Origin: Bacteroidales bacterium
GTDB lineage: Bacteria > Bacteroidota > Bacteroidia > Bacteroidales > Bacteroidaceae
Length of the DNA stretch: 21,054 nt
Direction: 5' to 3'
Assembly (NCBI GenBank): GCA_030531335.1
Contig: JAUNNV010000029.1
Span: 1-21,054 of the forward strand
The first letter of the stretch is position 1. Every line of letters starts with the position of its first letter. The notes under the pieces were generated by a model. That model saw only the letters and a program-made list of their open reading frames with translations, did not search any database and was not told the DNA's origin. A program made the position numbers and the translations under genes. Shown here piece by piece: positions 2,482-19,783 of this stretch.

Positions 2482-3849
2482 CTAATCGGCCTTTTCGGCA
2501 TTTTCAACCGTTTTCTCCTTTACCAAGTAAGAAGGCAGGTCGAGTCCTGCTTGGTTGAAAAGGTCGTGGAGCGGTGGCACACTCTTCATCAGTCCGGACA
2601 GAAAGTTGGCCGTCGAACCCTTTCCGTCGGCAGAGTTTCCACTGTCCCACACGGTGACGTGGTCGATGTTGACACCCTTGATGGCCTCGACCTGTGTGCG
2701 CACCAGTTCGGGAAGCTTTTCGGTGAGCAATAGCATGTAGGCCTTGTTGGCATCGCCTCCGGCAGCCTCGACCATCTGCTTGTAGCCGGCCGCCTGCTTG
2801 GTGAGCACCTCGTAGTAACCCTTGGCTTCGGCCTCCATGCGGGCATAGATGGCATCGGCCTCACCCTTGGCGTTGACACGAATCTTCTCGGCTTCGGCCT
2901 CGGCCTCGATGATGCGGCGTTTCTTCTCGATCTCTTGGCTTACGAGTACGTTTGCCGTCTGCGTGGAGCGTTCGCGCTCGGCGCGAGCCTCCTCTGCCTC
3001 GCGCTCGGCGGCGTAGGCCTCTTGTAGGGCCCGTGCCGATGCCACCTTCTCGGCAGCCGACGCACGGCGCAGTGCCTCGGCCTCCTTCTCGCGTCGGAAA
3101 GCCTCGGAGTTGGCAATATCCACCTTTGCGTTGTTCTCGCCCTGCACGGCCTGTGCGTTGGCTTCGGAGGTGCGTATGCGGGTCTCGCGTTCGGCCTCGG
3201 CCTTGCCTATGGCACCAATCTTGTCTTGCTCGGCCACACGAACCTTCGCCTCGTTGATGGCCTTGGCGGCGGCTTCACGGCCGAGAGCCTCGATGTAGCC
3301 CGACTCGTCCTTGATATCGGTGACATTCACATTGATAAGTCGCAAGCCTATTTTCTTCAGTTCCACTTCCACGTTGGCACTGATGCTTTCGAGAAACTTG
3401 TCGCGGTCGTTGTTCAGTTCCTCAATGCTCATGGTGGCGATTACCAGACGGAGCTGTCCGAACAGGATGTCGCGGGCGAGTTCCTGAATCTGCGTCGGCT
3501 TGAGGTCGAGCAGACGCTCGGCGGCGGCGTTCATGGATTCCGGATCGGTGGATATACCCACCGTGAAGCGGCTGGGCACATCGACACGGATGTTCTGGCG
3601 CGAGAGCGCATTGGTGAGATTGGCATCGATGGAAATGGGCGTAAGGCTCAGGTATTGATAATCCTGAATGATAGGCCACACGAAGGTGCCACCTCCGTGG
3701 ATGCACTTGGCCGACCCTCGTTTCCCGGTGGTGCCATAAACTACAAGGATTTTGTCGGACGGACAACGACGATAACGCTTGATGATGGAAGCGAAAAGGA
3801 TGATGCCGACGAACACTACGGCCACCATCAGATACATGGATTCTAACAT
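2482..3849 (-). CDS. Flotillin-family SPFH/Band-7 protein (YqiK/FloT-like)
   Basis: An N-terminal TM segment (MVAVVFVGIILFASII) is followed by an SPFH-like region. A long Ala/Glu/Arg-rich coiled coil follows (EAERETRIRTSEANAQAV...AEREAEEARAERER) and then a flotillin-type C-terminus. The gene is downstream of an NfeD-like gene, the classic yqiJ-yqiK arrangement. Confidence 0.85.
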   Translation of the reverse strand: MLESMYLMVAVVFVGIILFASIIKRYRRCPSDKILVVYGTTGKRGSAKCIHGGGTFVWPIIQDYQYLSLTPISIDANLTNALSRQNIRVDVPSRFTVGISTDPESMNAAAERLLDLKPTQIQELARDILFGQLRLVIATMSIEELNNDRDKFLESISANVEVELKKIGLRLINVNVTDIKDESGYIEALGREAAAKAINEAKVRVAEQDKIGAIGKAEAERETRIRTSEANAQAVQGENNAKVDIANSEAFRREKEAEALRRASAAEKVASARALQEAYAAEREAEEARAERERSTQTANVLVSQEIEKKRRIIEAEAEAEKIRVNAKGEADAIYARMEAEAKGYYEVLTKQAAGYKQMVEAAGGDANKAYMLLLTEKLPELVRTQVEAIKGVNIDHVTVWDSGNSADGKGSTANFLSGLMKSVPPLHDLFNQAGLDLPSYLVKEKTVENAEKAD

Positions 3850-3856
3850 GACAAAT

Positions 3857-3904
3857 ATGATAATTTTGAATTATGAACTTATGATAATTAAGAATTATGA
3901 CTTG
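3857..3904. repeat. AT-rich imperfect 24-bp direct repeat x2 in the nfeD-flotillin spacer
   Basis: atgataattttgaattatgaactt (3857-3880) is followed by atgataattaagaattatgacttg (3881-3904). About 19 of 24 positions are identical, including the shared blocks atgataatt and aattatga. Confidence 0.6.
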
Positions 3905-3945
3905 CGAAGTTTGATGATCGAATCGAACAATCTTAACTCAAAATA

Positions 3946-4518
3946 TTATATGGTGGATACTTTCACGGTGGATTCGTCGATGACAGCCTCTATGCGTACC
4001 TTGCGGCCTGTAGGAATATCGACACCGTCCGAAACGGCTGTGAGCTCATGGATGGAACCATGGACAGACACTTGTATCTGGCCTTTTCCCTGTGGTGGTA
4101 TGTGCAGATAGACATCGGCCACCAAGCCCACACAATCGGCCAGCGACCAAGCACCGTTGCGTTCGAGTTTGCGTGTCTGACGGAAAATGAATACGAACAA
4201 TGCCACAAACAAGGAGCCTGTGACCACCGACAAGAAACCCGCGAATAGATGGCTGCCGACCAAGGGGTAAAAGCAGATGCCTCCCCATCCGATGCCCATG
4301 AGAAGGGCGACGACATTCTTCACGCTGAACAGGTTGAGGCCACCCCCCATGTCGAGGGTGTTGTCAACGTCGAAGTCGGCATCGGTGTCGGTCGCATCGA
4401 TGCCAATGAAGGTTAGGATGGATTGGACGACAAACACGATGGTGGAAATGCCGGCAATCCACCAATAAAAACGGAGCATTGGGTCGAGCGATGCGTACCA
4501 GATAGACAATTCATTCAT
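3946..4518 (-). CDS. NfeD-like membrane protein (YqiJ/YuaF-like, C-terminal OB-fold), flotillin partner
   Basis: The ORF 3946..4584 is trimmed to MNELSIWY... at 4518. It has hydrophobic TM helices (WWIAGISTIVFVVQSILTF; LLMGIGWGGICFYPLVG; FLSVVTGSLFVALFVFIF). A C-terminal beta-rich region GKGQIQVSVHGSIHELTAVSDGVDIPTGRKVRIEAVIDESTVKV is typical of short NfeD. It lies immediately upstream of the flotillin gene. Confidence 0.7.
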   Translation of the reverse strand: MNELSIWYASLDPMLRFYWWIAGISTIVFVVQSILTFIGIDATDTDADFDVDNTLDMGGGLNLFSVKNVVALLMGIGWGGICFYPLVGSHLFAGFLSVVTGSLFVALFVFIFRQTRKLERNGAWSLADCVGLVADVYLHIPPQGKGQIQVSVHGSIHELTAVSDGVDIPTGRKVRIEAVIDESTVKVSTI

Positions 4519-4549
4519 GTTTTGATGTGTTTTCGTTGTTTTACGTTGG

Positions 4550-4557
4550 CAAATATA
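4550..4557 (-). promoter_or_regulatory. Candidate -7 promoter box (TATATTTG) for the nfeD-flotillin operon
   Basis: The minus-strand sequence ccc-TATATTTG-ccaacg lies about 32 nt upstream of the ATG at 4518. A TTTG lies about 20 nt further upstream at a -33-like position. Confidence 0.35.
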
Positions 4558-4591
4558 GGGACAAATAGATGAATTGCAAAACAAATCGGCA

Positions 4592-4669: not shown

Positions 4670-7108
4670 TCACATTTCGACCAAATGGAAGGAGGTCTGT
4701 CCTATCTGGAAGCTTTCGCCATGCCAGAGTTGATATTCCTTTCCAAGCGCGAGATATTTGCCCCCCTTCAAGGTGATGCCATCTACGGCACAGATACGCA
4801 CTACGCCATGCCTTTCATAAACCTTCACCTGCACGGGAGCCACGTCGCTTTGGAGATCCCAAGTGAGTTGCAAGGCGCAATCGACCGACTTGCCGATGGT
4901 GACAACTGTGTGAGGTGATGAGCGTAGCCATTTGTAGAGTGCGATGTCCATATCCTTGACAGATCCCGACACGTGCAGGAAAAAATGCTTGCCGACCGAC
5001 AAGGGTTGAGTCATGCACACCGCTATGGCCACACCATAGCCGATGAACACGAACAATGTCTTCATTAGTTCCGAAACCGTCTGTAGTTCCGCAACCATTT
5101 CCCAAAACAAAGTGCTCGCCACACCCACGACAGCCAGCATCAGCCACTGTCGCCTTTTGAGCCACAGGCGCGAATGATAGGTGGATACACAAGCGATGAC
5201 AAGTGTAGTCAGCACCCAAGGCAGCAGGTCGAACACAAACGAGCCCTCGTAAAGATTGAGCACGACAAGAGTGGCATTGTTGAAAACGAACACAAAAAAC
5301 ACGAGGACACACGCCACGGATGCCCGGACGAACTGCCCAAACAACCTTATGTGCCAACTATACTTGAACAACGTGAAGATTGACAGGGCAAAGGTAAGGA
5401 CGAAACCGATGATGCAACCAAATGTGGGAAGTGTATATAAACGTGAGGAGATGATGTCCAAATCCTGGGGGGAAAATGGGGATACACCTTGCTCGTGAAA
5501 GCCCAACAAGGAAATCGCGATACCATCGAAGAGGTCGAGAAAGAGTGAGCGAAAATGTGGATCCCACACAACCAACCAACCGATCGACGCCGCAGCGATG
5601 GCTACAAGGATCCAGCGTGTGAAGGGGGATGCGTTTTGAGGGTCGAGCAAGTTGGAACGGTTGTAATAATGCGAGCCATCGGGGCAATGCCTTCCATGTT
5701 CGGGGCAATGTTGTCCGTTTTCATTCCAACACTCCAAATGCATCACATGGCTGCATCTTGCCACGATACGGTCGCCCACGGCAAAGGGAGCCTTACAGTA
5801 ATAACATTCGTCGGGGATGGCGATGGCATTGATGCTCATGCGCCCCCCTGTATAGGTGAGGACATACTTGCGCTGAAAGATGACATAGCGTACAAATGGT
5901 TCCAACAGTTGCAAGGCCACGTAGGCGAGCAACAAGACCAGCAAGGCGATAATGATGCCGCGTGAAGCGATGTGGCCGGGCGATTTGTACCCACCGGTAA
6001 CGATTGGCACGTCAATGCTTCCGCACGCATATTCCTTGGAGCACCGGGCAATCAGGCTGTCGTTCCGGTCGTGGAAACTCAATTCCAGCCTGCGCGAACA
6101 GCCGTAGTAGATTTTCCCATCGGGATTCTCGAGCCGGATGGCGAAATCGGGATAGCCAATGCCGAAGGACGCGAAATTGTGTTTGCGCAACTCGACGGCA
6201 CTCAAACCATCGATGACACCCCCCCCCGATTGCTGGCAGAACACCTGCATCATATCCTTGTCGTCGGTGGAACTGTTTCCAGAGTCGGTCGAGGGAGTAC
6301 ACACGTAGCAAATGGCGGGTGCGGAAAACGAGGTGTCGGCGAGTTGTTGTAGGATTTGAGCCTGCACCCAGTAGTGGTCGGGGTCGAGAGGCGTATTGTC
6401 CGTCTCGTCATACACATGGCTGTCCGACAGTATCGCGATGGTGCGGTATGCAGCCGAGTCGAGAGGTGTTCCGGTGCCTTTGCGCAGTTTGCCGAGCATG
6501 AAGTACAAGGCACGATACACGTAAGGAGGAAGTTTGGTGTCGGACACACGATATTTGGAATTGCCGTTTACGTAATTGTCGATTACGTATGGCGAGACCT
6601 CCATGATAGGCGACAACTCGCCTTCGGAAAGGATGAACGAGATAAACACATTCCCATCGCCATACAGACGTATCAGCGAACGGATGTAGTCGCGTTCCTT
6701 TTCAAGCATGTCGGACGATTGGCACAAATCGACCATCAGCAGCAACTTGAGTCCCAACTTGGCATTTTCGGAAGCCACCACGTTGTTGAAGGAAACGACA
6801 TGTGGATGGGTCGATTCTGACCAAGGCACGAACTGGCGTTTCAGCTCCTTCACTGTCATGTGGATCAAGGAGCTGTCCTCAAGTAGGTATTTGTCCAAAT
6901 CATGGGTAATGTCCAACTCCAAGCTTATCTGTTTCACGTCGGTTGAAACGTTCATCGAGCGTATGGCCAAGGCATGGGTCTCGTGTTCGACCGAAGAAGG
7001 ATTCAACTCCGTGAACCGACTGCACGAGGCAAGTAGCAGAATGTATGGTAGCCAGACAGCAAACTGGCTGAAACGACGGAAACAACAAATTACAGACGGT
7101 TTCATCAT
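4670..7108 (-). CDS. Multi-domain membrane protein: lipoprotein signal + periplasmic (possibly vWA-like) domain + TM + cytoplasmic RING-H2 zinc finger + ~6-7 TM helices + C-terminal FHA domain; putative membrane E3-like ligase
   Basis: The N-terminus MMKPSVICCFRRFSQFAVWLPYILLLASCS has a lipobox. TM1 is IIIALLVLLLAYVALQLL. The RING-H2 pattern is C-x2-C-x13-C-x-H-x2-H-x2-C-W-x6-C-x2-H (ECYYCKAPFAVGDRIVARCSHVMHLECWNENGQHCPEH), with a Trp after ligand 6 as in E2-binding RINGs. Hydrophobic helices follow. The C-terminal GKSVDCALQLTWDLQSDVAPVQVKVYERHGVVRICAVDGITLKGGKYLALGKEYQLWHGESFQIGQTSF fits the FHA consensus (G..x..C.L....S..HA.I...........). Domain calls are motif-based only. Confidence 0.75.
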   Translation of the reverse strand: MMKPSVICCFRRFSQFAVWLPYILLLASCSRFTELNPSSVEHETHALAIRSMNVSTDVKQISLELDITHDLDKYLLEDSSLIHMTVKELKRQFVPWSESTHPHVVSFNNVVASENAKLGLKLLLMVDLCQSSDMLEKERDYIRSLIRLYGDGNVFISFILSEGELSPIMEVSPYVIDNYVNGNSKYRVSDTKLPPYVYRALYFMLGKLRKGTGTPLDSAAYRTIAILSDSHVYDETDNTPLDPDHYWVQAQILQQLADTSFSAPAICYVCTPSTDSGNSSTDDKDMMQVFCQQSGGGVIDGLSAVELRKHNFASFGIGYPDFAIRLENPDGKIYYGCSRRLELSFHDRNDSLIARCSKEYACGSIDVPIVTGGYKSPGHIASRGIIIALLVLLLAYVALQLLEPFVRYVIFQRKYVLTYTGGRMSINAIAIPDECYYCKAPFAVGDRIVARCSHVMHLECWNENGQHCPEHGRHCPDGSHYYNRSNLLDPQNASPFTRWILVAIAAASIGWLVVWDPHFRSLFLDLFDGIAISLLGFHEQGVSPFSPQDLDIISSRLYTLPTFGCIIGFVLTFALSIFTLFKYSWHIRLFGQFVRASVACVLVFFVFVFNNATLVVLNLYEGSFVFDLLPWVLTTLVIACVSTYHSRLWLKRRQWLMLAVVGVASTLFWEMVAELQTVSELMKTLFVFIGYGVAIAVCMTQPLSVGKHFFLHVSGSVKDMDIALYKWLRSSPHTVVTIGKSVDCALQLTWDLQSDVAPVQVKVYERHGVVRICAVDGITLKGGKYLALGKEYQLWHGESFQIGQTSFHLVEM
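6219..6227. repeat. 9-nt homopolymeric C run (G9 on the coding strand) inside the RING-FHA gene
   Basis: Plus gacaCCCCCCCCCgat, coding TCG GGG GGG GGT (SGGG) within QSGGGVIDGLS. Confidence 0.9.
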
Positions 7109-7110
7109 TG

Positions 7111-8076
7111 TCAGATGGTGGGATATTCGTTATCGTTAAATTGTGTCATGGACTTGTACTGCTTCGCCGCTTTCTTGGCGGCCTTCAGAGCGGCATATTT
7201 GCTCTTCATCATTGAAACAAACATCAGGATGATGGCTACGGCAGCCAAACTCATCAAGGAATCCTTCAGATGTTGCATCAGAGGCACATACTTCGCCTGT
7301 TGCACCTTGTCGGATTGCGCCTTTATCTCGGCGAACAACTGGCTGAGGCTGTCCATACGATTCTTTAGCGAAGGCACCAGCAATGCGGCTTGGGTGGCCT
7401 GTTGAAATGTTTGCTGCAATTCGGCAAAGGCGATTTGTTCCTTGGCTTGCAGCTGTTGCAGCAGAGGAGCCGTCTTGGCGGTCAGCGACAGCCTCTGGGA
7501 TTCCGACAGATATTGACTGTACTGATGCCGTTTCGATTCCAGCAGTTTTTCGGCCCGTGTAATGTCCTCCATCGCCTGCAGTCGGGCTTTTTGGGCTGCA
7601 ATCGAGTCCGACACGACTTGGAAGGTCACCTGAAAAGCCGTGAACTTGTCCATCAGAATCTCGTTTTCCACAATGTCTTGTTGTCGTACTTGCGTATAGA
7701 TATTCCATTGTACATTCACATTCTGCAACATCCGATCCAGTCCTTTTAATTCTGTCATCTTGGCCTGCGAAATACTTTTCCCGATATTGAGCAGTGTGGA
7801 TATGTATGCGTCCATCTCGCCCATCGTGGCGTTGGATTGTCCGCTTGGATGCGATGTCGTGGGTAAGTCTGAATAGACATCGAACTTTGTGGGCGTAGCC
7901 CATACAGACATGGTAGCCGATATGGTCACAAGCAGGATGGTGCAGAATGAGTAAACAACTTTTGTCACAATTGATTTCCTGTTATTGGCTTCGCCCATAA
8001 CAGACTGCGTCTCGGCATAACCAAGGTAGGCTTGCCTCTGCTCTTGGCTTGCGCTGTTATTCAAATTCACTGACAT
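7111..8076 (-). CDS. Bitopic/two-TM coiled-coil membrane protein, function unknown
   Basis: The ORF 7111..8232 is trimmed to the first Met lying near the stop of the upstream gene (MSVNLNN... at 8076). The start is uncertain; alternatives are 8232, 8115 and 7998 (MGEANNRK...). It has TM segments VVYSFCTILLVTISATMSVWA and LMSLAAVAIILMFVSMM flanking a long Gln/Leu-rich coiled coil. It lies 2 nt upstream of the RING-FHA gene. Confidence 0.55.
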   Translation of the reverse strand: MSVNLNNSASQEQRQAYLGYAETQSVMGEANNRKSIVTKVVYSFCTILLVTISATMSVWATPTKFDVYSDLPTTSHPSGQSNATMGEMDAYISTLLNIGKSISQAKMTELKGLDRMLQNVNVQWNIYTQVRQQDIVENEILMDKFTAFQVTFQVVSDSIAAQKARLQAMEDITRAEKLLESKRHQYSQYLSESQRLSLTAKTAPLLQQLQAKEQIAFAELQQTFQQATQAALLVPSLKNRMDSLSQLFAEIKAQSDKVQQAKYVPLMQHLKDSLMSLAAVAIILMFVSMMKSKYAALKAAKKAAKQYKSMTQFNDNEYPTI

Positions 8077-9277
8077 GTTTGAAGAAATATTTCGCTGCTG
8101 TGTCGAAAATGCCATACGCACGACGCTGTTCTTCGTTGTATATGCCTTTTTCCTCAACACCTTGCTTGGTGACGTTGATGATGTCGCGACCCATAAAGTA
8201 GATATCGCGTCGTTCCAACTCATTTTTCGCAACCAGATTTTGCGCCACCAGTTTGTCTAATTGACGTGCCGCTCGGACAAGTGCTTCGGGCGAAATACCT
8301 GTGCCGTAGAGCACGCTGCCCTCTTCCGTCAGCTCTACCGGGACGGCGCATTTCAGGGATTCAATCGAATCCACGTAGTTGTTGTAACTGTCGCGCACCA
8401 TATTCACATCGGCACATGACGATTTCGTCTCTATCGGTTGGAATTTCGACAACAGAAATTCTTGATGTTGCTTGAACACGCCGACCTCCTCGGCGGATTC
8501 CACCTTGCCTGAAGGACATATCTGATGGAGCTTCCGATACGCTTTCCGGATATCCATCAACTTGGCTTTCATGACAGCCAACGCCTCTTGTTGACCATGG
8601 CAAGGATTGCGGGCCAATGCCACCCGACAAGTAAGGTCAAGATCGTGATCGAATACTATCTCGTATTCCCGTCCTTTCTGAGTGTCTTTCAACACATCCA
8701 CCACCATGATGTTGCGAATGCGCAACGTCACATCGGATGCCTCCGGATTCACCTTGAACCGTTGTGTCAAAATTTTCTGACTTAACTTCGGCAATGTCTG
8801 AGGCGAGTCTGTCGCACTTGTCGGCAGATAGGTAGCAGGACAGGCAATGGTGAGCGAGGCGGAGTTCGGTTCCACCCAGGCATTGATAAGGTGATGGCGG
8901 CGTTTCTTCCGATACGACTTATACACCGATTCTCTTAGGTAATATTTCGAATTAGGCTCTACCAGCACCTTATATTGCAATTTCTCGGCATGAAGCCGAC
9001 GTTTGCCAAGAAACGGATGGGTAAACACATCGTTGTAGGATACGTCCTGACGGAAAGCCATGAAATCGCGATTGCCAGACAACGTGAGAACCAACTCGTC
9101 GGCAGCCTCTTCGAAAGCAAGCGTCAGGTCAAGCTCCAAGCCTTTGTCGTCGAAGGCAATCTGTATTTTCTCCTGATAAGGCGTGTCGGCATCCACACGC
9201 ACGTTTTTGGTCTCTTGAGCCTGTGCCAGGGCAGCACAGCAGGCCATGAAAAGGCAGAAGAATTTAGTCTTGGTCAT
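8057..9277 (-). CDS. Secreted hypothetical protein (406 aa) with N-terminal signal peptide
   Basis: ATG at 9277; MTKTKFFCLFMACCAALAQAQ-ETKN is a signal peptide. A long ORF with mixed composition and several Cys. It overlaps the E2 gene end by 14 nt. No recognisable catalytic motif. Confidence 0.65.
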   Translation of the reverse strand: MTKTKFFCLFMACCAALAQAQETKNVRVDADTPYQEKIQIAFDDKGLELDLTLAFEEAADELVLTLSGNRDFMAFRQDVSYNDVFTHPFLGKRRLHAEKLQYKVLVEPNSKYYLRESVYKSYRKKRRHHLINAWVEPNSASLTIACPATYLPTSATDSPQTLPKLSQKILTQRFKVNPEASDVTLRIRNIMVVDVLKDTQKGREYEIVFDHDLDLTCRVALARNPCHGQQEALAVMKAKLMDIRKAYRKLHQICPSGKVESAEEVGVFKQHQEFLLSKFQPIETKSSCADVNMVRDSYNNYVDSIESLKCAVPVELTEEGSVLYGTGISPEALVRAARQLDKLVAQNLVAKNELERRDIYFMGRDIINVTKQGVEEKGIYNEEQRRAYGIFDTAAKYFFKHVSEFE

Positions 9278-9860
9278 AATATATCCAATTGTTTGGTTCT
9301 CCTTGTGTCCGAACCCAATAGGCTACTTTCAAATCCTCTGGGTAAGGAGGTTCGGGCAGTGCATGGTAGATTTCGTAGCGCAGATACAGTGCGATGCGTT
9401 CCACAGCCCATGCCAAACTGCTGTGTGTGTTGGGCATGTTCACACACACACGTCCTGCCAGGCTACCATGATACCCTATGTTGGGATGCCAAGGCAACGT
9501 GTCGCCCACAAAACGGAAGCAAGGCATAGCATCTACCTGAGGATAACGTTCGGGAAGTTTTATCTCCATCCGAAACTCATGGGCGAAAATAGGACTGCCA
9601 TCCACATTCACCCCACAGATACATTTTATAAAATAGTCTATCGAGTAGGCCGTAGGGATTCCTTCAGGGGTGGCATCGACCACTTGCATGGCGATGTCGT
9701 TGCGTTGTTTCACAAAGGCGGCAAGCTGCTCCCACTCGTAAAACAGTCGGTGTGCGCGTCCTCGAAGAGGCTTGTTCTGAAACCAGCTTGTCCCGGGCGA
9801 AGTCAAGGAAAGGGGTTTACCCTGGGAATGGATCGGGGATGAGGAAAATTGTGTCGCCAT
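9264..9860 (-). CDS. Ubiquitin-conjugating enzyme (E2/UBC-fold) homologue
   Basis: The UBC core motif is ...FRMEIKLPERYPQVDAMPCFRFVGDTLPWHPNIGYHGSLAGRVCVNM... (YP.xP, HPNI, G...C). It can be laid alongside UbcH5 ...[34 protein letters not shown]. An N-terminal RLFYEWEQL helix is present and LPEPPYPEDL lies downstream. The ATG at 9860 overlaps the Ubl gene end by 44 nt; an alternative TTG start lies at 9806. Confidence 0.8.
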   Translation of the reverse strand: MATQFSSSPIHSQGKPLSLTSPGTSWFQNKPLRGRAHRLFYEWEQLAAFVKQRNDIAMQVVDATPEGIPTAYSIDYFIKCICGVNVDGSPIFAHEFRMEIKLPERYPQVDAMPCFRFVGDTLPWHPNIGYHGSLAGRVCVNMPNTHSSLAWAVERIALYLRYEIYHALPEPPYPEDLKVAYWVRTQGEPNNWIYYDQD

Positions 9861-10140
9861 TGTTCACATTATAGTCGGCAAGCGTCTGTTCGGTTTTCCC
9901 AATGCGCGGCCGCATCACGCGAATCTCGTGCACGACCTCGTCTTCTTTCCCAAAGAAATAATCGAGGGGTGCTCCTGTGCTGTCGATGGAGGGAAAGTCG
10001 AATATCAGTCGGCCATCTTGTCCGGTTGAATGTTTCAGGTTGTTCATCAATGCGCCCAATGGGAGTTGCGGATTGATGACGCGGAACTTCACCTTTTTGT
10101 CCTTATAGACAATGTTAATGAAAAAATCGTCTTGGTGCAT
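9817..10140 (-). CDS. Ubiquitin-like (beta-grasp) protein ending in a C-terminal Gly
   Basis: The C-terminal 22 residues TLADYNVNNGDTIFLIPDPFPG match ubiquitin 55-76 [22 protein letters not shown] position by position (T,L,D,Y,N,I/V,T,I/L,L,I/V, terminal G). The stop codon follows the Gly directly. RLIF and a KVKFRVI beta-hairpin lie upstream. The ATG at 10140 is 23 nt after the tssF stop. Confidence 0.75.
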   Translation of the reverse strand: MHQDDFFINIVYKDKKVKFRVINPQLPLGALMNNLKHSTGQDGRLIFDFPSIDSTGAPLDYFFGKEDEVVHEIRVMRPRIGKTEQTLADYNVNNGDTIFLIPDPFPG

Positions 10141-10163
10141 GTTTCGTCAATGATGGTTGATGG

Positions 10164-11927
10164 TTATTTGCTACGCGAATCTAAGTCAATCTTCACTTGG
10201 ATGGGGCAGATGCCCGTAGTACGCACCTCCATGAGCCTTTGTAGGTGATTTTCGATACTGGCAAAATGTTTTCCCAACGCACGTTTCACATACATGTTGT
10301 CGTGGAGCACGATACCTACCACGATGCAATAAGCATGATAGCTACCTCGTGTAAGCACCTGCTTGTGCGTACGTATGGAGGCTATCATTTCCTGCTCTAC
10401 ATTGAACCGTGTGGCCAATTCCTGATAACAAAACAACTTTAGATCTGTTTCGGTGACAAGCCGGTCGTCGGTGGCTATGAAGTAGCGTGTAGCCGTCCTC
10501 ATGGCTTCCTCGGACAACAATTCGTCGTATCCTGGTTGAGGAATCGTCACTTGATGGGATTTGGACTGGTCGAAACCTGGGGGTACCACAAACACGGCAT
10601 CGGAGGTGAGCACACTGTTCACTACAGCTCCGTTAGTGGTCAGATAGCCGACATTGAGTGAAGTGTTTTCTGGGCTTTGTCGAAGGGTGTCGCCCCAACT
10701 ATCCTTCGAGCGTTCGTGAGGAATGCCGGCAAACATCAGATAGACACCCTCGTGCGAGGTTCGCAAATGTGGATGCGTGTGTTGCGACAACTCCTTCAGG
10801 TTGTTGCGCAGGTTGTGCATCACCATGTCGGTATATTCGTTGCCCATGGCCTGAAACGCATAATAGTCGGATGTGTATTTGTCGATGAGGCCCGACAACA
10901 ACCTGTGCAGCCTCCCCTCGTTGAACCTGTCGGCACCTATGCGCCGCACCTGTAGCCGGACATTGCCTAATAGTTGGTCCTCGTCGGGACGTAGCAGATG
11001 AAGAAACTGCCCATTGTTCTTGTCATCGATACGCTGTATAGGCGCATCGGCCGAGAGGGTGGCTGTTTTCACTTCGGCGTTCACTATCAAGGCGATGTTG
11101 ACAAGCAAATCGCTCTCTTTGAAAGAAAAGTTGTCGTCGATGCCGTCGAACTCGAAGGTGAGTTCCATGCGATCAATGGCATCGATATCGTCCATTTCAT
11201 CTACGACATACAGCAATAGGTTTTGTCGGGCATACAAATCCAGGGCGCAGAAGTTGCGATAGGCAGCCATGCCTTGGAACACGTTGCCCGAACGTACGGC
11301 TTGCGACTGATTGTAGAGCAACGTATCAAGCGAGAAACAGTCGGCACACGGCAGATTCGCAAAGTCCCACGGTGCGATGAGGGGTATTTCCCTATCGCTC
11401 ATGCTTACACGCAGGCCATGGAAATCCTGGTTCTTCAAGGCAAACGCAAGGCCTTTTAGGCTTTTCACCTTGTGTGGAAAGAACATATTGACTTGCCATC
11501 TCCTTCCATCCACGCGCCTCAGCCCATCCATCTCCACCTGTATGGCTTTGGTCTTGAGCAAGGGGATGAAGTTGAAGTTGTTGTTGTCGGTTCCTTTTAA
11601 GATGAATCTCATGGACGAATCGACATCCATTTCCGTCACATTGGGCATCAGAGCCAATTGCACGACGGCTGTGGCTGGAATGGCCTTGACTGGTTCGTTC
11701 ACGCAAAGCATGTTCTGGAACTCGTCGAGCAGCTCCGTCCGCAATGCCTCCAACTCGTTGTCCGACTCGTTGAATTGATAGGCCAGTGCCGTAATCAGGA
11801 ACTTGAACAGCGGATCCGAATCCAGTCCCTCAAGACTGTCGCTTCTGTTGTTGCGGTGCCAAATATCCACACATTGGGCCATCAGCTCCTTGGCGCGTTG
11901 TCTTATTTCAAATATGTTCTGTCTCAT
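10164..11927 (-). CDS. tssF: TssF-like baseplate protein (phage gp6 / baseplate-J family)
   Basis: 587 aa, directly after the gp25-like gene. The N-terminal block DPLFKFLITALAYQFNESDNELEALRTELLDEFQNMLCVNEPVKAIPATAVVQL resembles the TssF signature DP.VERLLEGFAFL...L.DEFPE...LL..L.P...P.PS..IVQF. The size and gene order (tssE-tssF) fit. Confidence 0.75.
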   Translation of the reverse strand: MRQNIFEIRQRAKELMAQCVDIWHRNNRSDSLEGLDSDPLFKFLITALAYQFNESDNELEALRTELLDEFQNMLCVNEPVKAIPATAVVQLALMPNVTEMDVDSSMRFILKGTDNNNFNFIPLLKTKAIQVEMDGLRRVDGRRWQVNMFFPHKVKSLKGLAFALKNQDFHGLRVSMSDREIPLIAPWDFANLPCADCFSLDTLLYNQSQAVRSGNVFQGMAAYRNFCALDLYARQNLLLYVVDEMDDIDAIDRMELTFEFDGIDDNFSFKESDLLVNIALIVNAEVKTATLSADAPIQRIDDKNNGQFLHLLRPDEDQLLGNVRLQVRRIGADRFNEGRLHRLLSGLIDKYTSDYYAFQAMGNEYTDMVMHNLRNNLKELSQHTHPHLRTSHEGVYLMFAGIPHERSKDSWGDTLRQSPENTSLNVGYLTTNGAVVNSVLTSDAVFVVPPGFDQSKSHQVTIPQPGYDELLSEEAMRTATRYFIATDDRLVTETDLKLFCYQELATRFNVEQEMIASIRTHKQVLTRGSYHAYCIVVGIVLHDNMYVKRALGKHFASIENHLQRLMEVRTTGICPIQVKIDLDSRSK

Positions 11928-11943
11928 CGTTATGCACCCTTCA

Positions 11944-12387
11944 TTAGTTCCATACGTTTATGATGTTGCTGTACTGAAAAGGCTCGTTTGTATCGCCCAA
12001 CAGGCCGGTTATTTCCACCAATACTTGCCGTTGGTCGCGGCGGTAGTTCATTACTACCTTTGGTGAGAGCAACCGAGGCTCATACACCTCGATGCTATGC
12101 TTCAGGTCGGAGGCGAATGTCTGTAGGTTCTTCGAGGAGCCGGAAACTTTCTTCTTGTATATTGGATTCCGGCTGTCACGAGAATCGAACACCGTCCCCT
12201 CGTTCTCGTCGAAAATCTCAAATCTCAACGTGGAGAACACAAAGCCATAATCCGGATCGATGGGCAAAGAGCCCAACGGTGTGTCCATCAGGAGCTGTAG
12301 CGAATCCCTGACCGATTGCTCCAACCCGTTCGACTGATGGAGGAACCTGCCCGACACTACCTGTAAAGGACTTTGCAAGTATTTCAT
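11944..12387 (-). CDS. tssE: TssE / gp25-like baseplate wedge protein (GPW_gp25 family)
   Basis: 147 aa. SVRDSLQLLMDTPLGSLPIDPDYGF and IEVYEPRLLSPKV match the gp25/TssE motifs (..NL..LL.T..G.....P.fG / I..fEPRL). The ATG at 12387 overlaps the upstream stop in an ATGA. Confidence 0.85.
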   Translation of the reverse strand: MKYLQSPLQVVSGRFLHQSNGLEQSVRDSLQLLMDTPLGSLPIDPDYGFVFSTLRFEIFDENEGTVFDSRDSRNPIYKKKVSGSSKNLQTFASDLKHSIEVYEPRLLSPKVVMNYRRDQRQVLVEITGLLGDTNEPFQYSNIINVWN

Positions 12388-13589
12388 ATCAATGGTGTGA
12401 AAACATCTTCCGGCTGATGTTCCTCCTTGGCCACGAGACCAGACAGCGCATTGAACAATGCAGGGTAAAGTTCCTGATATAGCCTATCGTGCAATGCTTC
12501 GTACAGCACTTCTTTCAGCTTCGGACGAAGTCGATCGTCCACGTATGCCTGCAGTTTTTCCGTGATTGTCGCGGTCAGTTCAGGCATCACCACGTCGCGA
12601 AGTTCCATGCGGATTTTTTCGTCTATTTGCTGCTTCAATTGTTCAAGAAGTTGTGTGTACAACTCTCTCTTCAGCGCCTCCACATCGATGTGGCGACTTT
12701 CCGTCACCACATCGTCCATGGACAGTAGCAAGGCGTTCATGAATTCTTTGAGCCACGACAGGTAGGCTCGGATATGGTTTGTGTGAGGCACGCGGCGAGG
12801 GTCGGCGGCCAGCTCGCGCGTGGGTTCTTGTCCTGAGCCCTGCCGAAGGACTTGTTGGCCTCCCAATCCCAATCGGATGTGGTAATCCAAGGCTTGATCC
12901 GTTTCGCGCAACAGTCGCACAAGCTCCACTACCGACTCCTTGCCGGTGAGGCTCTGTAGCCGGAAACACAGATGTAACAAGGTGCGTTTGCCGTCACCAT
13001 CCTCCATGTTGCGGTGGGTAGCCAGCTTCGTGAGTAGTTCCACATACATGCTTACGAACTCTCCGAAAGCCTTGTGCGAGGCTGTCGAGATCATGGGAGG
13101 CACATACGAGGCATCCACATTGAGCAGGTCGCCCTCTACGTAAAGCCTCTTCAGCGGCAGTACGTCCAAACTTTCGTCGGCACGTTCCAACTCGTCCAGC
13201 GAATGCAGCGAGAGCTCGTAAACGGGAGCCTTGTAGGGTATGCCATCGCGTTCGAAACAATGTGTTTTCCCATTGGCAGGGCCGACGCACACAAAACATT
13301 CCGGCAACGGTTGCGACACGATGGTCAGCGTGAGGTCGTCATCTACGCTGAGCACGGCCCCCGATGGCAACAATGCCGTAAGCCTCAGATTGTTCATCTC
13401 GAAGGTGTTGCCCACAAAAGCGCCCTCAACGTGTAGTGGGTACATGGGGAGAATGCCCATGCCGACACTCCCTATGGCGGCGCGGAGCAACAGTTGCTGA
13501 CGGTTGTCGAAGTCGTGTTGCTGATGGACGAAGACCCCAGAGGTGAGCTCCATCCCTGGTTGCCAATGTATATTTGCGTTGTAATACAT
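12384..13589 (-). CDS. tssK: TssK-like baseplate protein (N-terminal shoulder domain) with C-terminal coiled-coil region
   Basis: The N-terminus NIHWQPGMELTSGVFVHQQHDF...LLRAAIGSVGMGIL resembles the TssK start (W.EGM.L.PQHFQQ.D...LAR.G...WG). 401 aa, 4-nt ATGA overlap with tssE. The C-terminal half is helical/coiled-coil, so this is an atypical TssK and only moderately confident. Confidence 0.55.
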   Translation of the reverse strand: MYYNANIHWQPGMELTSGVFVHQQHDFDNRQQLLLRAAIGSVGMGILPMYPLHVEGAFVGNTFEMNNLRLTALLPSGAVLSVDDDLTLTIVSQPLPECFVCVGPANGKTHCFERDGIPYKAPVYELSLHSLDELERADESLDVLPLKRLYVEGDLLNVDASYVPPMISTASHKAFGEFVSMYVELLTKLATHRNMEDGDGKRTLLHLCFRLQSLTGKESVVELVRLLRETDQALDYHIRLGLGGQQVLRQGSGQEPTRELAADPRRVPHTNHIRAYLSWLKEFMNALLLSMDDVVTESRHIDVEALKRELYTQLLEQLKQQIDEKIRMELRDVVMPELTATITEKLQAYVDDRLRPKLKEVLYEALHDRLYQELYPALFNALSGLVAKEEHQPEDVFTPLI

Positions 13590-13631
13590 GCCTTTATGTC
13601 ATTTTATGATGGATTTTGGTTTCGCGACTCA

Positions 13632-14432
13632 TCATTCATAGTCCTTAATTACGATATTGTAGTTCATGATTTTCCCTTCCTCCGACTTGCCCTTGGCTCC
13701 TGCCTCAAACAGGCAGTCGAAAGGAATGAACCGGCTGTGCACAAATGCAAGCATACGTTCCCATCGTTTGGTAAGGTCGGCGTATGCGGTGGCTGTCAGA
13801 CCATCCACACAAATGTCGTAATGCACTTTTTGCATCCAAAAGCGTGTGTTGTCGCATTCGTTGTACGCCGACAAACGCATCCGCACCGGATAACCCGTGA
13901 CAACGCTCAGCAATGATTTTACAAACGACAAGTTGCCACGGAGTTTGGCCACGTATGGCAGCAACACCGCCACCTTGCGCACATACTCGTCCGTTTCCGC
14001 CTCCAAGTCGAACTTGTAGGATGTTTTTAACACGAATTCGAGCTTGCGGGCCAGCAAGTCGGCCACGATGTGTTCCCGCTTCAGCTTCTGCCTGAACATG
14101 AACGAGTCGATGGGTAGGAAAGTTTCTGACAGTGTCCTTATCCGCTCATGCAACTGTTGGGCAAGCTGTTTGAAATCGCCTTTTCGTTTCCTTCCGAAAC
14201 GGTCGGATGCCTTCAGCTCATCCTCCGATCCTAAAAACAAGGGAGGCAGATAGTGTAGGAAGCCGTTGCGCGAAAGCGATACGATTGCTTCCTTCGGATT
14301 GATGGACAACACATCCGGCGCATAGTTCCTGCTGAAGGAACCTTTCTGATAGGCCAGCCACTTGTCTTCCAGCTCTGGATACAAATAGTTGAGCAACAGT
14401 TCCGCACTTATCTCGTGCCTGTCGGTTGTCAT
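13632..14432 (-). CDS. Hypothetical cytoplasmic protein (266 aa), translationally coupled downstream of E1
   Basis: The ATG at 14432 overlaps the E1 stop (ctATGAcaa). There is no signal peptide or TM segment and no motif I can name. It lies 42 nt upstream of the tssK-like gene. Confidence 0.6.
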   Translation of the reverse strand: MTTDRHEISAELLLNYLYPELEDKWLAYQKGSFSRNYAPDVLSINPKEAIVSLSRNGFLHYLPPLFLGSEDELKASDRFGRKRKGDFKQLAQQLHERIRTLSETFLPIDSFMFRQKLKREHIVADLLARKLEFVLKTSYKFDLEAETDEYVRKVAVLLPYVAKLRGNLSFVKSLLSVVTGYPVRMRLSAYNECDNTRFWMQKVHYDICVDGLTATAYADLTKRWERMLAFVHSRFIPFDCLFEAGAKGKSEEGKIMNYNIVIKDYE

Positions 14433-15478
14433 AGTTCCACGTACCTATATCCTGTTGGGGTCTTTATTCTCACAATGTCGTGTGCTGGAATGCCCAACGC
14501 AGCCAATGGCAGCGTGGGGTAGGGGAACGAGGTGTCTATCTCCGCATATTCGTGTTGGCATAGTTTCGCCATCGGTATGGTCGAAAGTCGTGGATGTTGC
14601 TTCACGAAGCCAGCCATTCGGCGTGCCGGCAGCATTGCTTCCGTCTGTTCGCCCGTCTCTCGATTCTCTACATAATCCACAAAGGCATCGTTGAGCACCA
14701 CAGTGCCAATCCGCAGGAGTGATTTCAGCGAGTGTTCCCTGACTACTTCAATAGGCTCCCATTGCTCGTGCAGCACGCAATCGTCATCCCACGCCTCGAA
14801 CACGGCTTTCCGCACACTCAGGTTTTCGCCATCGTAGTAGCACATGTTTCGTTCCACTGGCACGCCTGCAATCACTTTCAATGCTTCGGCTGCTTGCCAG
14901 GCTCCTATCACGCTGGCCGCCACTGATGTGGTAGGGGCATGGCCAGCCGCTTCCATTTGCCGTATCACGCCCGAACAAGGCATCCGTCGGCGCAACTCGT
15001 CCAGTCCTTCCGTCCCGAGGCCACAAGCGTAGCAGTTCACGCCGGGCACAAACACCCGCATCGTCCCCTCCATGCCGATGATGCCACCGTCAATCCATGT
15101 CTTTCCTGCCCTCGTACAGAGGCGCTGGATGCAATAGCGGGTCCACCGGCTATCGACGCATCCCATCACCACGTTCATCTGCCGTATCAATGCCAATCCC
15201 ACATCGTATGCCACATCGCCATGGATGGCCTGCACATCGACGGTGGCGTTGATGCCTCTCAGCGCGTCCTTCACCACATCCACTTTGCGCCGACCCACAT
15301 CGACTGGCCTGAACAGGATGCTTCGTGTGAGGTTGCCCTGTTCCACCACATCGAAATCGACCACCACCAGATGCCCCACTCCAAGCAGTACGAGGTTTTT
15401 GAGCACCTCGTTGCCCAGGGCCCCACATCCCACCACCATGATGCGGGCATCGCGCAGCTTGTCTTCTTCGATGTTCAT
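14429..15478 (-). CDS. E1-like ThiF/MoeB-family adenylyltransferase (ubiquitin-activating-enzyme-like)
   Basis: The ORF 14429..15778 is trimmed to MNIEEDKLRDARIMVVGCGALGNEVLKNLVLLGVGHLVVVDFDVVEQGNLTR (Rossmann GxGxxG plus an acidic D..D motif typical of E1/ThiF). Downstream are CYAC (CxxC) and MPCSGV (candidate catalytic Cys in a PxCT-like context). The 100 codons upstream of this Met are Gly/Arg/His/Cys-rich junk. The ATG at 15478 overlaps the upstream stop (ggATGAac). Confidence 0.8.
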   Translation of the reverse strand: MNIEEDKLRDARIMVVGCGALGNEVLKNLVLLGVGHLVVVDFDVVEQGNLTRSILFRPVDVGRRKVDVVKDALRGINATVDVQAIHGDVAYDVGLALIRQMNVVMGCVDSRWTRYCIQRLCTRAGKTWIDGGIIGMEGTMRVFVPGVNCYACGLGTEGLDELRRRMPCSGVIRQMEAAGHAPTTSVAASVIGAWQAAEALKVIAGVPVERNMCYYDGENLSVRKAVFEAWDDDCVLHEQWEPIEVVREHSLKSLLRIGTVVLNDAFVDYVENRETGEQTEAMLPARRMAGFVKQHPRLSTIPMAKLCQHEYAEIDTSFPYPTLPLAALGIPAHDIVRIKTPTGYRYVEL

Positions 15479-16200
15479 CCGATTGGTAGTTTGTCCTGAA
15501 TGCTGTTGAAGACCTTGTCGAGCTTCATGCTCTGTCCGCCTTTTGTGATGTCCGTTGTGGATGTATCCTTCGCATTGCCGGCCACATGGCGGTTGTAGGC
15601 TTCCTCGATTTCCTTTTTCTTGTCGTTGTAGAGTCGTTCCATCATTTCGGAATACGTGTCGAAAATTTCCTGCAACTTGTCCTTGGCCTCTTTTACCGCC
15701 TCTTCCGAGCTTCCTACAGTGCGACTGGCTACCGCAGACGCAGCCCTCGTCTTTTCTGCCTCGATTTTCGTCTTGCATTCCGAGTAGAGTGCATCGGTGG
15801 CCGTGTCGAGTAAATCCTTGCGTTCCTTATTTACATCGGGCATCGTGAGCAGTAGGTATTTGGCATCGATGCCATTCTCATCGTCTGCCCCAGGAGCAGT
15901 TTCGAGCGTCACCTTGAATTCCGGATGCACTTCCGTGATGCCTTTGTAAATGCAGGAGAAGTACGCCGAATCCTTTGGATATACATTCATCATGTGTTTT
16001 TCGTTCTCATCCTCGTGCACTAAAATGTCGGCCACGTCCTCAATGCGTTTGTCCATGCCACCATACACCATCTCCACTCCCAGCAACGAAGAGGGATCGG
16101 CCTTGACACACACGTTGCAGAACAGGTACGACATGCTTGCCACATGTCCCAGCATCCTGTTCTGTGTTTCTATCAATGCGACTTCTACCGATCGTTTCAT
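15475..16200 (-). CDS. Hypothetical protein (241 aa; N-terminal globular part + acidic coiled-coil C-terminus), translationally coupled upstream of E1
   Basis: ATG at 16200; the stop overlaps the E1 ATG. No JAB/MPN HxH motif was found. The C-terminal region is Lys/Glu-rich (EAEKTRAASAV...EAVKEAKDKLQEIFDTYSEMMERLYNDKKKEIEEAY). Confidence 0.6.
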   Translation of the reverse strand: MKRSVEVALIETQNRMLGHVASMSYLFCNVCVKADPSSLLGVEMVYGGMDKRIEDVADILVHEDENEKHMMNVYPKDSAYFSCIYKGITEVHPEFKVTLETAPGADDENGIDAKYLLLTMPDVNKERKDLLDTATDALYSECKTKIEAEKTRAASAVASRTVGSSEEAVKEAKDKLQEIFDTYSEMMERLYNDKKKEIEEAYNRHVAGNAKDTSTTDITKGGQSMKLDKVFNSIQDKLPIG

Positions 16201-16239
16201 TTGTTATTTGCCATTTACCATATTCTCTAATATCTCTTA

Positions 16240-16629
16240 CTATTTGCCCTCTGCAAGGCACGCATTGCCGGGGAAGTTCACGGAGATGTTTCCACCCCAG
16301 TTGCACATACATTTGCAGTTGTCGAGCAGTGCAGGCATTTGTTTTACCATTTCTTTTCCTCCAGGCATCCATGGAGCGGCTATCACTGGCATGCAGGGCA
16401 TGGGCGTAAGTGCTCCGAATGCTGCAGCCGTGGCCGCAGCCACCTGAGGATTCGACAAGCTTTGGCACATGCCGAAAGGCATGATGTTCATCATCGGCTT
16501 GTTGTCGCCGATGTTTCCTATGGGTTTCCCCTGTACCTTTGGTCGGGTGGGATCCACCACCATGAAGTTGGAAGGAGCCATCCCGAACGAGCACTGCAGG
16601 ATTGCTCCGGCCGTTACGAATTTTCCCAT
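16240..16629 (-). CDS. DUF4280 PAAR-like spike-tip protein
   Basis: 129 aa. VTAGAILQCSFGMAPSNFMVVDPTRPKVQGKPIGNIGDNKPMMNIMPFGMCQSLSNP matches the DUF4280 pattern as I recall it (GA.L.CSFG..PS.L.V...V.G.P.A...D..P..NI.PFG.C). It lies 8 nt after the preceding gene. Confidence 0.75.
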   Translation of the reverse strand: MGKFVTAGAILQCSFGMAPSNFMVVDPTRPKVQGKPIGNIGDNKPMMNIMPFGMCQSLSNPQVAAATAAAFGALTPMPCMPVIAAPWMPGGKEMVKQMPALLDNCKCMCNWGGNISVNFPGNACLAEGK

Positions 16630-16638
16630 TGTATTTTT

Positions 16639-18423: not shown

Positions 18424-18469
18424 CTTTTTCAATTTAGGGTTGTCCTATCAATAGGCTTTGTCGAGGTTG

Positions 18470-19768: not shown

Positions 19769-19783
19769 ATTTCCTATTGTGAA

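Follow-up and report, generated by a model that had tools for sequence, protein, structure and literature searches.

A probable E2 start codon inside the ubiquitin-like gene of a Bacteroidales type VI secretion locus

Introduction

Where does translation of a gene begin when its first ATG lies inside the gene upstream? The question is raised by a 21,054-nt stretch of a Bacteroidales bacterium (contig JAUNNV010000029.1, positions 1 to 21,054), which as a whole we call the window. On its minus strand a gene for a ubiquitin-like modifier (Ubl) is followed directly by a gene for a ubiquitin-conjugating enzyme (E2) of the UBC fold. The Ubl open reading frame (ORF) occupies 9817..10140 (-), encodes 107 residues, and in the ORF listing ends …NGDTIFLIPDPFPG before its stop codon, TAA at 9819-9817. 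The E2 ORF occupies 9264..9860 (-), encodes 198 residues and is listed with the N-terminus MATQFSSSPIHSQGKPLSLTSPGTSWFQNKPL; its translation from the ATG at 9860 opens MATQFSSSPIHSQGKPLSLTSPGTSWFQNKPLRGRAHRLFYEW…. The two genes thus have in common the 44 nt of 9817..9860, read in different frames (280 mod 3 = 1), with E2 in the +1 frame relative to Ubl across the overlap. A TTG, also in the E2 frame, lies at 9806-9804, which is 10 nt past the Ubl stop and 54 nt from the ATG.

The initial annotation of this DNA described the overlap and the downstream TTG, and posed the choice between an unusually long coding overlap and a non-ATG start. All coordinates of the overlap were correct on recheck, the TTG is where it was said to be, and the choice is the right one to pose: relatives that lack the TTG, and keep both the ATG and the frame, favor the overlap. 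We propose the ATG at 9860, which lies 44 nt within Ubl, as the start of E2 translation, and put the probability of this reading at roughly 0.78.

Results

What does the junction itself say? The proposed start codon (9858..9860, minus strand) is assembled from two Ubl sense codons, taking bases 2-3 of Asn94 (AAT, 9861-9859) and base 1 of Gly95 (GGC). Nine nt upstream of it, the Ubl codons AAT-GTG-AAC create an in-frame ATG-TGA start-stop pair (9869-9864) that is also found in the related locus L001 and not in L162, and that is probably incidental. Downstream of the 44-nt overlap, a spacer of 55 nt (9762..9816) separates the Ubl stop from Gly34, the first conserved E2 codon; this spacer varies in length among relatives, evolves fast and contains copies of a junction motif. 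The conserved core, as defined by homologue alignment, then runs from Gly34 (GRAHRLFYEW…) to the E2 stop codon (9264..9761). Initiation at the ATG predicts the N-terminal peptide (M)ATQFSSSPIHSQGK, and initiation at the TTG predicts TSPGTSWFQNKPLR (TSPGTSWFQNK…). An in-frame ATG inside a preceding gene is by itself no more than chance gives; support for use of this one comes from the comparison of related loci.

About 170 loci were collected, 80 of them from species-representative genomes, 80 from metagenomes and 11 by exact-protein look-up. The closest locus in the metagenome scan was 57% identical, and close relatives were found instead through the exact-protein look-ups. In each locus we scored where Ubl stops, where the E2 core lies, and which ATG, GTG or TTG codons stand in frame between the upstream in-frame stop and the core. 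This could be done for 162 loci, which have 139 distinct E2 cores. A start at or after the Ubl stop is present in 121 of these 139. In 11 others the overlap is forced, the only start being an ATG 44 nt before the end of the Ubl stop codon. The remaining 7, the window among them, are ambiguous and have the 44-nt ATG plus a later start. No locus among the 162 lacks a canonical E2 start.

The forced-overlap loci are L001, L002, L003, L004, L005, L007, L081, L099, L161, L162 and L164. From position -44 down to the core, the ATG at -44 is the sole in-frame ATG, GTG or TTG, apart from a GTG at -41 or a TTG at -26 in some of them, both of which also lie within the Ubl gene. Their E2 cores, 54-94% identical to that of the window, are spread over several branches of a distance tree of cores. 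Overlap loci occur there in at least three places: the clade of the window itself (L001, L161 and L162; the L002 group and L164 are its neighbors), L099, and L129. In the L002-type junction the Ubl TAA is embedded in the E2 codons GTT-AAG just 1 nt ahead of the core Gly codon, so that no downstream E2 start is possible. Protein clusters of this type are abundant; one of them, P0014, has 109 member sequences. The same 44-nt geometry is common to all eleven forced-overlap loci and to L167-L171. The codon usage of Ubl follows suit: Asn is encoded by AAT in 18 of 18 distinct loci in which an open frame joins the ATG to the core, and elsewhere AAT and AAC are divided 50:41. Across the overlap loci the spacer lengths are 1, 7, 10, 34, 55, 79 and 103 nt, all of them 1 mod 3 and free of in-frame stops.

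The retained +1 frame relation would be equally compatible with a second route to E2, namely +1 ribosomal frameshifting out of Ubl to yield a Ubl-E2 fusion, or reinitiation at a non-canonical codon. We consider either very improbable. The ATG, that is AAT and not AAC, is kept wherever it is needed, and frameshifting would not demand an ATG; no conserved slippery or stall site was noted; and most orthologues have E2 in other frames with an ATG of its own. Fusion would also remove the invariant free C-terminal Gly of Ubl. The suggestion in the initial annotation that some genomes might have Ubl-E2 fusions found no example, in that no fused ORF occurs in the 162 loci or among the homologues listed. 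As for reinitiation, the spacer of L161 has no in-frame near-cognate start codon.

The closest relatives of the window bear on the TTG directly. Four contigs, L167-L170, were reached through P0121, a Ubl protein 95% identical to that of the window, and the set is completed by L161 (P0001, E2 88% identical over the full ORF), L171 (P0247) and L001; the E2s of the closest relatives share one 90% identity cluster with that of the window. The distance from Ubl stop to core Gly codon is 10 nt in L171, L001 and L162, 34 nt in L169, 55 nt in the window, L161 and L168, 79 nt in L167, and 103 nt in L170. All five lengths are 1 mod 3, hence in frame with the internal ATG, and none contains an in-frame stop. 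Within this clade, a canonical start downstream of the Ubl stop is found in the window only. The seven closest relatives examined (L161, L167-L171 and L001) all lack the TTG; they share the geometry, and their spacers contain neither another canonical start nor a near-cognate one. In keeping with this, the products in the 90% cluster are of 183, 191, 198, 206 and 214 residues, plus one of 180. The last is MDO4949210.1, "ubiquitin-conjugating enzyme E2 [Bacteroidales bacterium]", which is the window's own E2 annotated from the TTG (9264-9806) in a metagenome-assembled genome with locus-tag prefix Q4E55. In other collections, the gene calls for close relatives start from the internal ATG.

Might E2 nevertheless start at the TTG (9804..9806), giving a 180-residue protein and no real overlap, with the stretch from ATG to TTG untranslated in the E2 frame? 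The codon is canonical and in frame, it was chosen by the NCBI annotation pipeline (PGAP), the spacer lacks constraint at the protein level, and the majority of distant orthologues do start past the Ubl stop. This reading would require a switch of start codon in the window alone, and we regard it as unlikely. The ATG at 9860 is the likeliest start given the loci that have no alternative, the loss of the TTG in every close relative, and a frame kept over five alleles. The GenBank start is therefore probably wrong, and the TTG is probably a chance codon in a fast-evolving spacer.

Sequence context separates the two codons less cleanly. In a start-context matrix built from 839 ORF starts in these loci, the ATG, with A at -1, -3 and -4, scores 4.4 bits above the TTG, which has T at -3 and a C-rich upstream region. 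PMC6847099 gives A at -3 as a positive determinant of initiation in Bacteroidetes.

Several observations weigh against initiation at the ATG and account for our reserve. Its context score is only at the 5th percentile of the training starts, about the median for internal ATGs, with the TTG at the 1st percentile, so that by this measure both codons are weak starts. A start at the TTG would leave a tail of 15 residues ahead of the core, near what is seen in orthologues (median 13, interquartile range 12-15), and the pipeline did pick the TTG. Simple slippage of a 24-nt unit would put three of the four length changes in frame automatically, and the frame argument is then worth about 1/9 to 1/81. 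The openness of the spacer is weak evidence, stops being scarce in every frame of so C-rich a stretch. Finally, both starts could be used, with isoforms of 198 and 180 residues that differ only in a disordered tail. Both codons are canonical, in frame and 54 nt apart, the E2 tail is dispensable, and the sequence would allow dual initiation, but the TTG is unconserved and in poor context. We give this a small chance, well short of that of the TTG by itself.

The spacer is of interest in its own right. It consists of 1-5 imperfect copies of a junction motif, CAGGRYAARCC…CCCTTCGA, which corresponds to the Ubl Pro-Gly-stop followed by E2 K-P-F/L-R. Motif copies are spaced 29, 24, 16 and 25 nt apart, sub-units that are not all multiples of 3, and yet the allele totals are always in frame. 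It behaves as a hypervariable mini-repeat with a unit of about 24 nt, varying among strains that are otherwise more than 90% identical in the flanking genes. Tandem Repeats Finder reported no array at the junction of the window and, in L170, just a weak period of 16 nt; the repeats were recognized from the positions of the motif. Between the window and L161, 19 of the 55 spacer bases differ (8, 4 and 7 at the three codon positions), and in the core 39 of 495 differ, mostly at third positions. The spacer evolves at or above the synonymous rate, and its protein sequence is therefore not under selection. This too counts on the opposing side, as non-coding DNA would look alike. Two candidate signs of coding were considered and set aside: the absence of stops in the spacer, since all three frames of the C-rich stretch are nearly stop-free, and a codon-position bias in substitutions between the window and L161, of which none was seen.

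How representative is the window? The 121 separate-start loci break down into 29 with an ATGA junction, 3 with a one-base overlap, 20 with a gap of up to 10 nt, 41 with a gap of 11-30 nt, and 28 with a gap of more than 30 nt, which in some extends to about 250 nt. The E2 start therefore falls 1-4 nt into the Ubl stop in 32 of the 121, and within that range or no more than 10 nt away in 52. By these counts a tight Ubl/E2 junction appears common but not universal. The initial annotation had set a conserved, separate ATG without overlap as the observation that would speak against its proposal; a separate start at or past the Ubl stop is indeed the rule in distant orthologues, but not in the window's own clade. 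The long overlap is accordingly a clade-specific state in a family whose members mostly overlap briefly or leave a small gap. Translational linkage of Ubl and E2, as first suggested, is plausible from the junctions compared here.

Are the two products what they seem to be? The E2 assignment, made initially by motif, was borne out by a family profile, alignment, AlphaFold and Foldseek. Against Pfam UQ_con (PF00179) the protein scores E=4.8e-6 and 26.7 bits, just below the gathering cut-off of 27.0, and many of its homologues carry a precomputed match to the same family. A profile of 34 family sequences searched against PDB sequences finds UBE2K at E=9e-6, with the WHPNI motif and the Cys aligned. 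H125, P126, N127 and C139 are invariant across the 34 homologues; the codon for the catalytic Cys139, which follows the HPN at residues 125-127, is at 9444-9446 (-). In the AlphaFold model (predicted template modelling score 0.69) the UBC core is confident, with helix 1 at residues 35-51, strands between 56 and 118, and helices at 149-186. The top 38 Foldseek matches of the model in the PDB are all E2 or UEV proteins at probability 0.99-1.0, and eukaryotic E2s are matched at 1.0. The "YP..P" motif noted at first does not hold in that exact form: the actual sequence is YPQVDAMP, with a two-residue insertion relative to the canonical E2 motif.

The N-terminal tail of E2 is a different matter from the core. 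As had been suspected of the first 30 or so residues, it appears unstructured, with residues 1-27 below 50 in predicted local distance difference test (pLDDT) and predicted to be disordered. In the homologue alignment, conservation begins at Gly34 (G-R-x-R-R-L; G34, R35, R37, R38), and the part upstream varies in both length and sequence. Some close homologues are of 166 residues and start MTGRQRRR, two residues ahead of the core. In others the N-terminus is MVIPYSS… or MAILYSS…, a +1-frame reading of the Ubl C-terminus (NGDT[VI]FL[VI]PDPFPG). The sequence of the tail is therefore dispensable, given orthologues that start two residues before the core, and this together with the disorder fits a tail that is a by-product of the overlap.

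The Ubl identity is supported by its ORF and homologues, by an AlphaFold model of beta-grasp topology (pLDDT 86.7), and by Foldseek matches at probability 1.0 to ubiquitin variants, SUMO2, the bacterial Bil Ubl 8tyx (also 8tyz) and Caldiarchaeum ubiquitin. There are 543 homologues, and the 120 listed are of 103-123 residues and 70-95% identical. An alignment of 30 sequences has 46 invariant columns, which include the terminal PDPFPG, and the …PDPFPG-stop C-terminus, with its exposed Gly (Gly107 in the window), is present in the 162 loci. The terminus is Pro-Gly and not di-glycine. Some other bacterial and archaeal Ubls also lack Gly-Gly, so that a Pro-Gly end does not exclude conjugation. Ubl far exceeds the other genes of the locus in conservation, with a median identity of 72%, as against 27-49% for most neighbors and 63% for the DUF4280 gene. 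Its beta-grasp fold contains an insertion of 20-25 residues (about residues 38-60) that is nearly invariant (DGRLIFDFPSID.TGAPLDYFF).

The genes around the pair were characterized in the window and in 72 long loci (those of at least 15 kb). In all 72 the order is g597, DUF4280 (PAAR-like), usually RRF-like, E1, g266, g401, gp25/TssE, g587, Ubl, E2, g406, g373 and RING, and this order spans Prevotella, Bacteroides, Parabacteroides, Alistipes, Millionella, Mediterranea and Paludibacteraceae. Upstream, two relatives (L172 1-21788 and L173 1-18588, one of them a close relative of the window) have three TssD/Hcp genes and VgrG (Phage_base_V), and L172 has ClpV and TssC as well in the stretch fetched. 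The window holds the part of the locus from g371 downstream only, at 4670-20899 (-). Sheath, tube, spike, ClpV and baseplate genes thus lie upstream of and around Ubl and E2 in relatives, and the pair, judged from this gene content, is embedded in a complete Bacteroidales type VI secretion system (T6SS) locus. The baseplate assignments come from per-member Pfam matches: TssF in 9 of 25 orthologues of g587 (best 8e-7), and TssK/VasE in 20 of 25 orthologues of g401 (best 9e-6). Profile searches of the 587-, 401- and 266-residue neighbors against PDB sequences gave no match, and to call the 266-residue protein TssG is a guess from position only. No relative of the cluster was found in viral contigs.

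The E1 candidate, a ThiF-family adenylating enzyme (Pfam ThiF, E=1.4e-51), lies at 14429..15478 (-). Read from its first start, the ORF (14429-15778, 449 residues) overlaps the RRF-like gene by 304 nt and opens with some 100 residues of low complexity. Translation probably begins at Met101, whose ATG (15478) overlaps the RRF-like stop as ATGA, and gene calls for the orthologues are of 347-357 residues. The RRF-like gene (15475-16200 (-), 241 residues; Pfam RRF, E=4.8e-12) stands between E1 and the PAAR-like gene. Of the 72 long loci, 51 have it, sometimes inverted, and its presence in a secretion or ubiquitination locus is odd.

A membrane protein of 812 residues (4670..7108 (-)), a candidate E3 for E2, has a RING and a C-terminal FHA domain, which are recognized by Pfam in orthologues: zf-RING_2 in 22 of 22, Prok-RING_1 in 20 of 22, and FHA in 12 of 22 (best 2.9e-8). 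The RING gene is present in 72 of 72 long loci. The protein has an N-terminal signal or lipoprotein-like region, a RING-H2-like finger (C435-H480) with invariant Cys and His residues, and several membrane helices predicted by eye. FHA proteins are regulators of T6SS assembly in Proteobacteria; in this locus a candidate E3 and an FHA domain are joined in one protein.

Other junctions in the operon are also tight. ATGA junctions occur at RRF-like/E1, E1/g266 and TssK-like/gp25. The 3' end of E2 overlaps the ATG of the next gene, g406 (8057-9277, 406 residues, no family match), by 14 nt (9264..9277 (-)); the overlap is the same in L167-L171, is 20 nt in L162, and is 4 nt (ATGA) in more distant loci. 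The 373-residue ORF listed next (7111-8232) overlaps g406 by 176 nt as drawn from a TTG, and gene callers disagree on this junction, with a 214-nt gap in L167 and a 59-nt overlap in L168. A BNR/sialidase-like gene (18470-19768) between g371 and g597, and an NfeD/Band-7 pair (2482-4584) downstream of the RING gene, are each found in only 1 of the 72 long loci, the window's closest long-locus relative, and look like lineage-specific insertions or flanking genes.

Discussion

How would such an arrangement work? We suppose that ribosomes initiate at the internal ATG in the manner of Bacteroidia, without Shine-Dalgarno pairing and with A at -3 as a favorable feature. The first 33 or so residues of E2 would then form a disordered tail free of sequence constraint, some 15 of them dictated by the C-terminal codons of Ubl in the other frame and the other 18 supplied by the length-variable spacer, with the UBC fold beginning at Gly34 (GRAHRL…). 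Translation of Ubl across the start site may couple or limit E2 synthesis, such that more Ubl than E2 would be made. The E1 would adenylate Gly107 of Ubl and hand it to Cys139 of E2, and the membrane RING-FHA protein would act as the E3 in the surrounding T6SS locus. That E2 forms a thioester with Ubl delivered by E1 is suggested by co-occurrence, E1 and Ubl sharing an operon in 71-72 of the 72 long loci.

Overlapping, coupled genes in operons (ATGA, TAATG) are the nearest parallel for the junction. As in those, Ubl and E2 are adjacent and co-directional, their products would act together, and the downstream start lies inside the upstream ORF. The differences are in extent and composition: the overlap is 44 nt, as against 1-4 nt, the E2 start is built from two conserved Ubl sense codons, and the overlap encodes only a disordered tail. 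Long annotated overlaps are often mispredictions, and it is the comparative data that support this one.

The enzymes themselves invite two further comparisons. The window E2 shares with eukaryotic E2s such as UBE2K the UBC fold, the HPN and a downstream catalytic Cys. As in the Caldiarchaeum E1/E2/RING cascade (PMC5654768), its partners, encoded in one operon, are an E1 of ThiF type, a beta-grasp Ubl that ends in Gly, and a RING protein. The present E2 is bacterial, however, with a longer HPN-Cys loop (12 residues after the Asn) and an insertion in YP…P; its Ubl requires no processing and terminates in Pro-Gly, not Gly-Gly; the RING protein is of the multi-pass membrane type and has an FHA domain; and neither a JAB nor any other deubiquitinase was detected in the window. 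The last statement covers 18 large ORFs searched with Pfam and 10 with NCBIfam, and a divergent peptidase is possible, as several ORFs are unannotated.

The bacterial Bil (BilABCD), Bub and CBASS Cap2/Cap3 systems (PMC10557695, PMC11601596, PMC11601603) also encode E1, E2 and Ubl together, and the Bil structures 8tyx and 8tyz are similar to the model of the window Ubl. The window differs from them in that no deubiquitinase gene was found, the classical HPN is kept in E2, and the context is a T6SS locus and not a defense island. PADLOC returned nothing specific, only generic E1-E2 matches to the ThiF domain and a weak E2 match at E=8e-4.

What, then, is the surrounding system? Relatives share with the Bacteroidales T6SS-iii architectures GA1-GA3 (PMC4714493) ClpV, TssC, three TssD/Hcp, VgrG, PAAR-like DUF4280, gp25/TssE, TssK-like and TssF-like genes, all in one direction. 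They differ in that E1, Ubl, E2, RING-FHA and RRF-like genes are interleaved with the baseplate genes in the 72 long loci; the words ubiquitin, ThiF, RING and FHA do not occur in the GA1-3 paper. We found no literature description of an E1/E2/Ubl cascade inside a T6SS locus, in a search whose coverage excluded the likeliest prior mention, Burroughs et al. 2011. A tentative proposal, to which we give somewhat less than even odds, is that this is an undescribed class of T6SS locus in which a eukaryote-like cascade is interleaved with baseplate genes, and that Ubl conjugation controls assembly, firing, recycling or cargo loading. In that case the overlap and the in-frame repeat might set the Ubl:E2 ratio or tune E2 docking. 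As to novelty, the finding is a variant of overlapping, coupled genes and of bacterial E1/E2/Ubl operons, and the surrounding system is more surprising than the overlap.

The practical consequences are several. Expression or modelling of E2 needs the right N-terminus, and here the deposited 180-residue annotation is probably wrong and gene callers disagree on the family. Ubl and E2 offer a clean, testable case of a long, out-of-frame overlap with a start codon made from two conserved upstream codons, and a single change that is silent in Ubl, AAT to AAC, would separate the expression of the two genes. The pair also marks a widespread Bacteroidales secretion locus with a near-eukaryotic-type E1-E2-RING-Ubl set. 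Its relatives include cultured Parabacteroides distasonis An897, which is the forced-overlap locus L003, and Xylanibacter ruminicola D31d, and such cultured carriers could make the system experimentally approachable.

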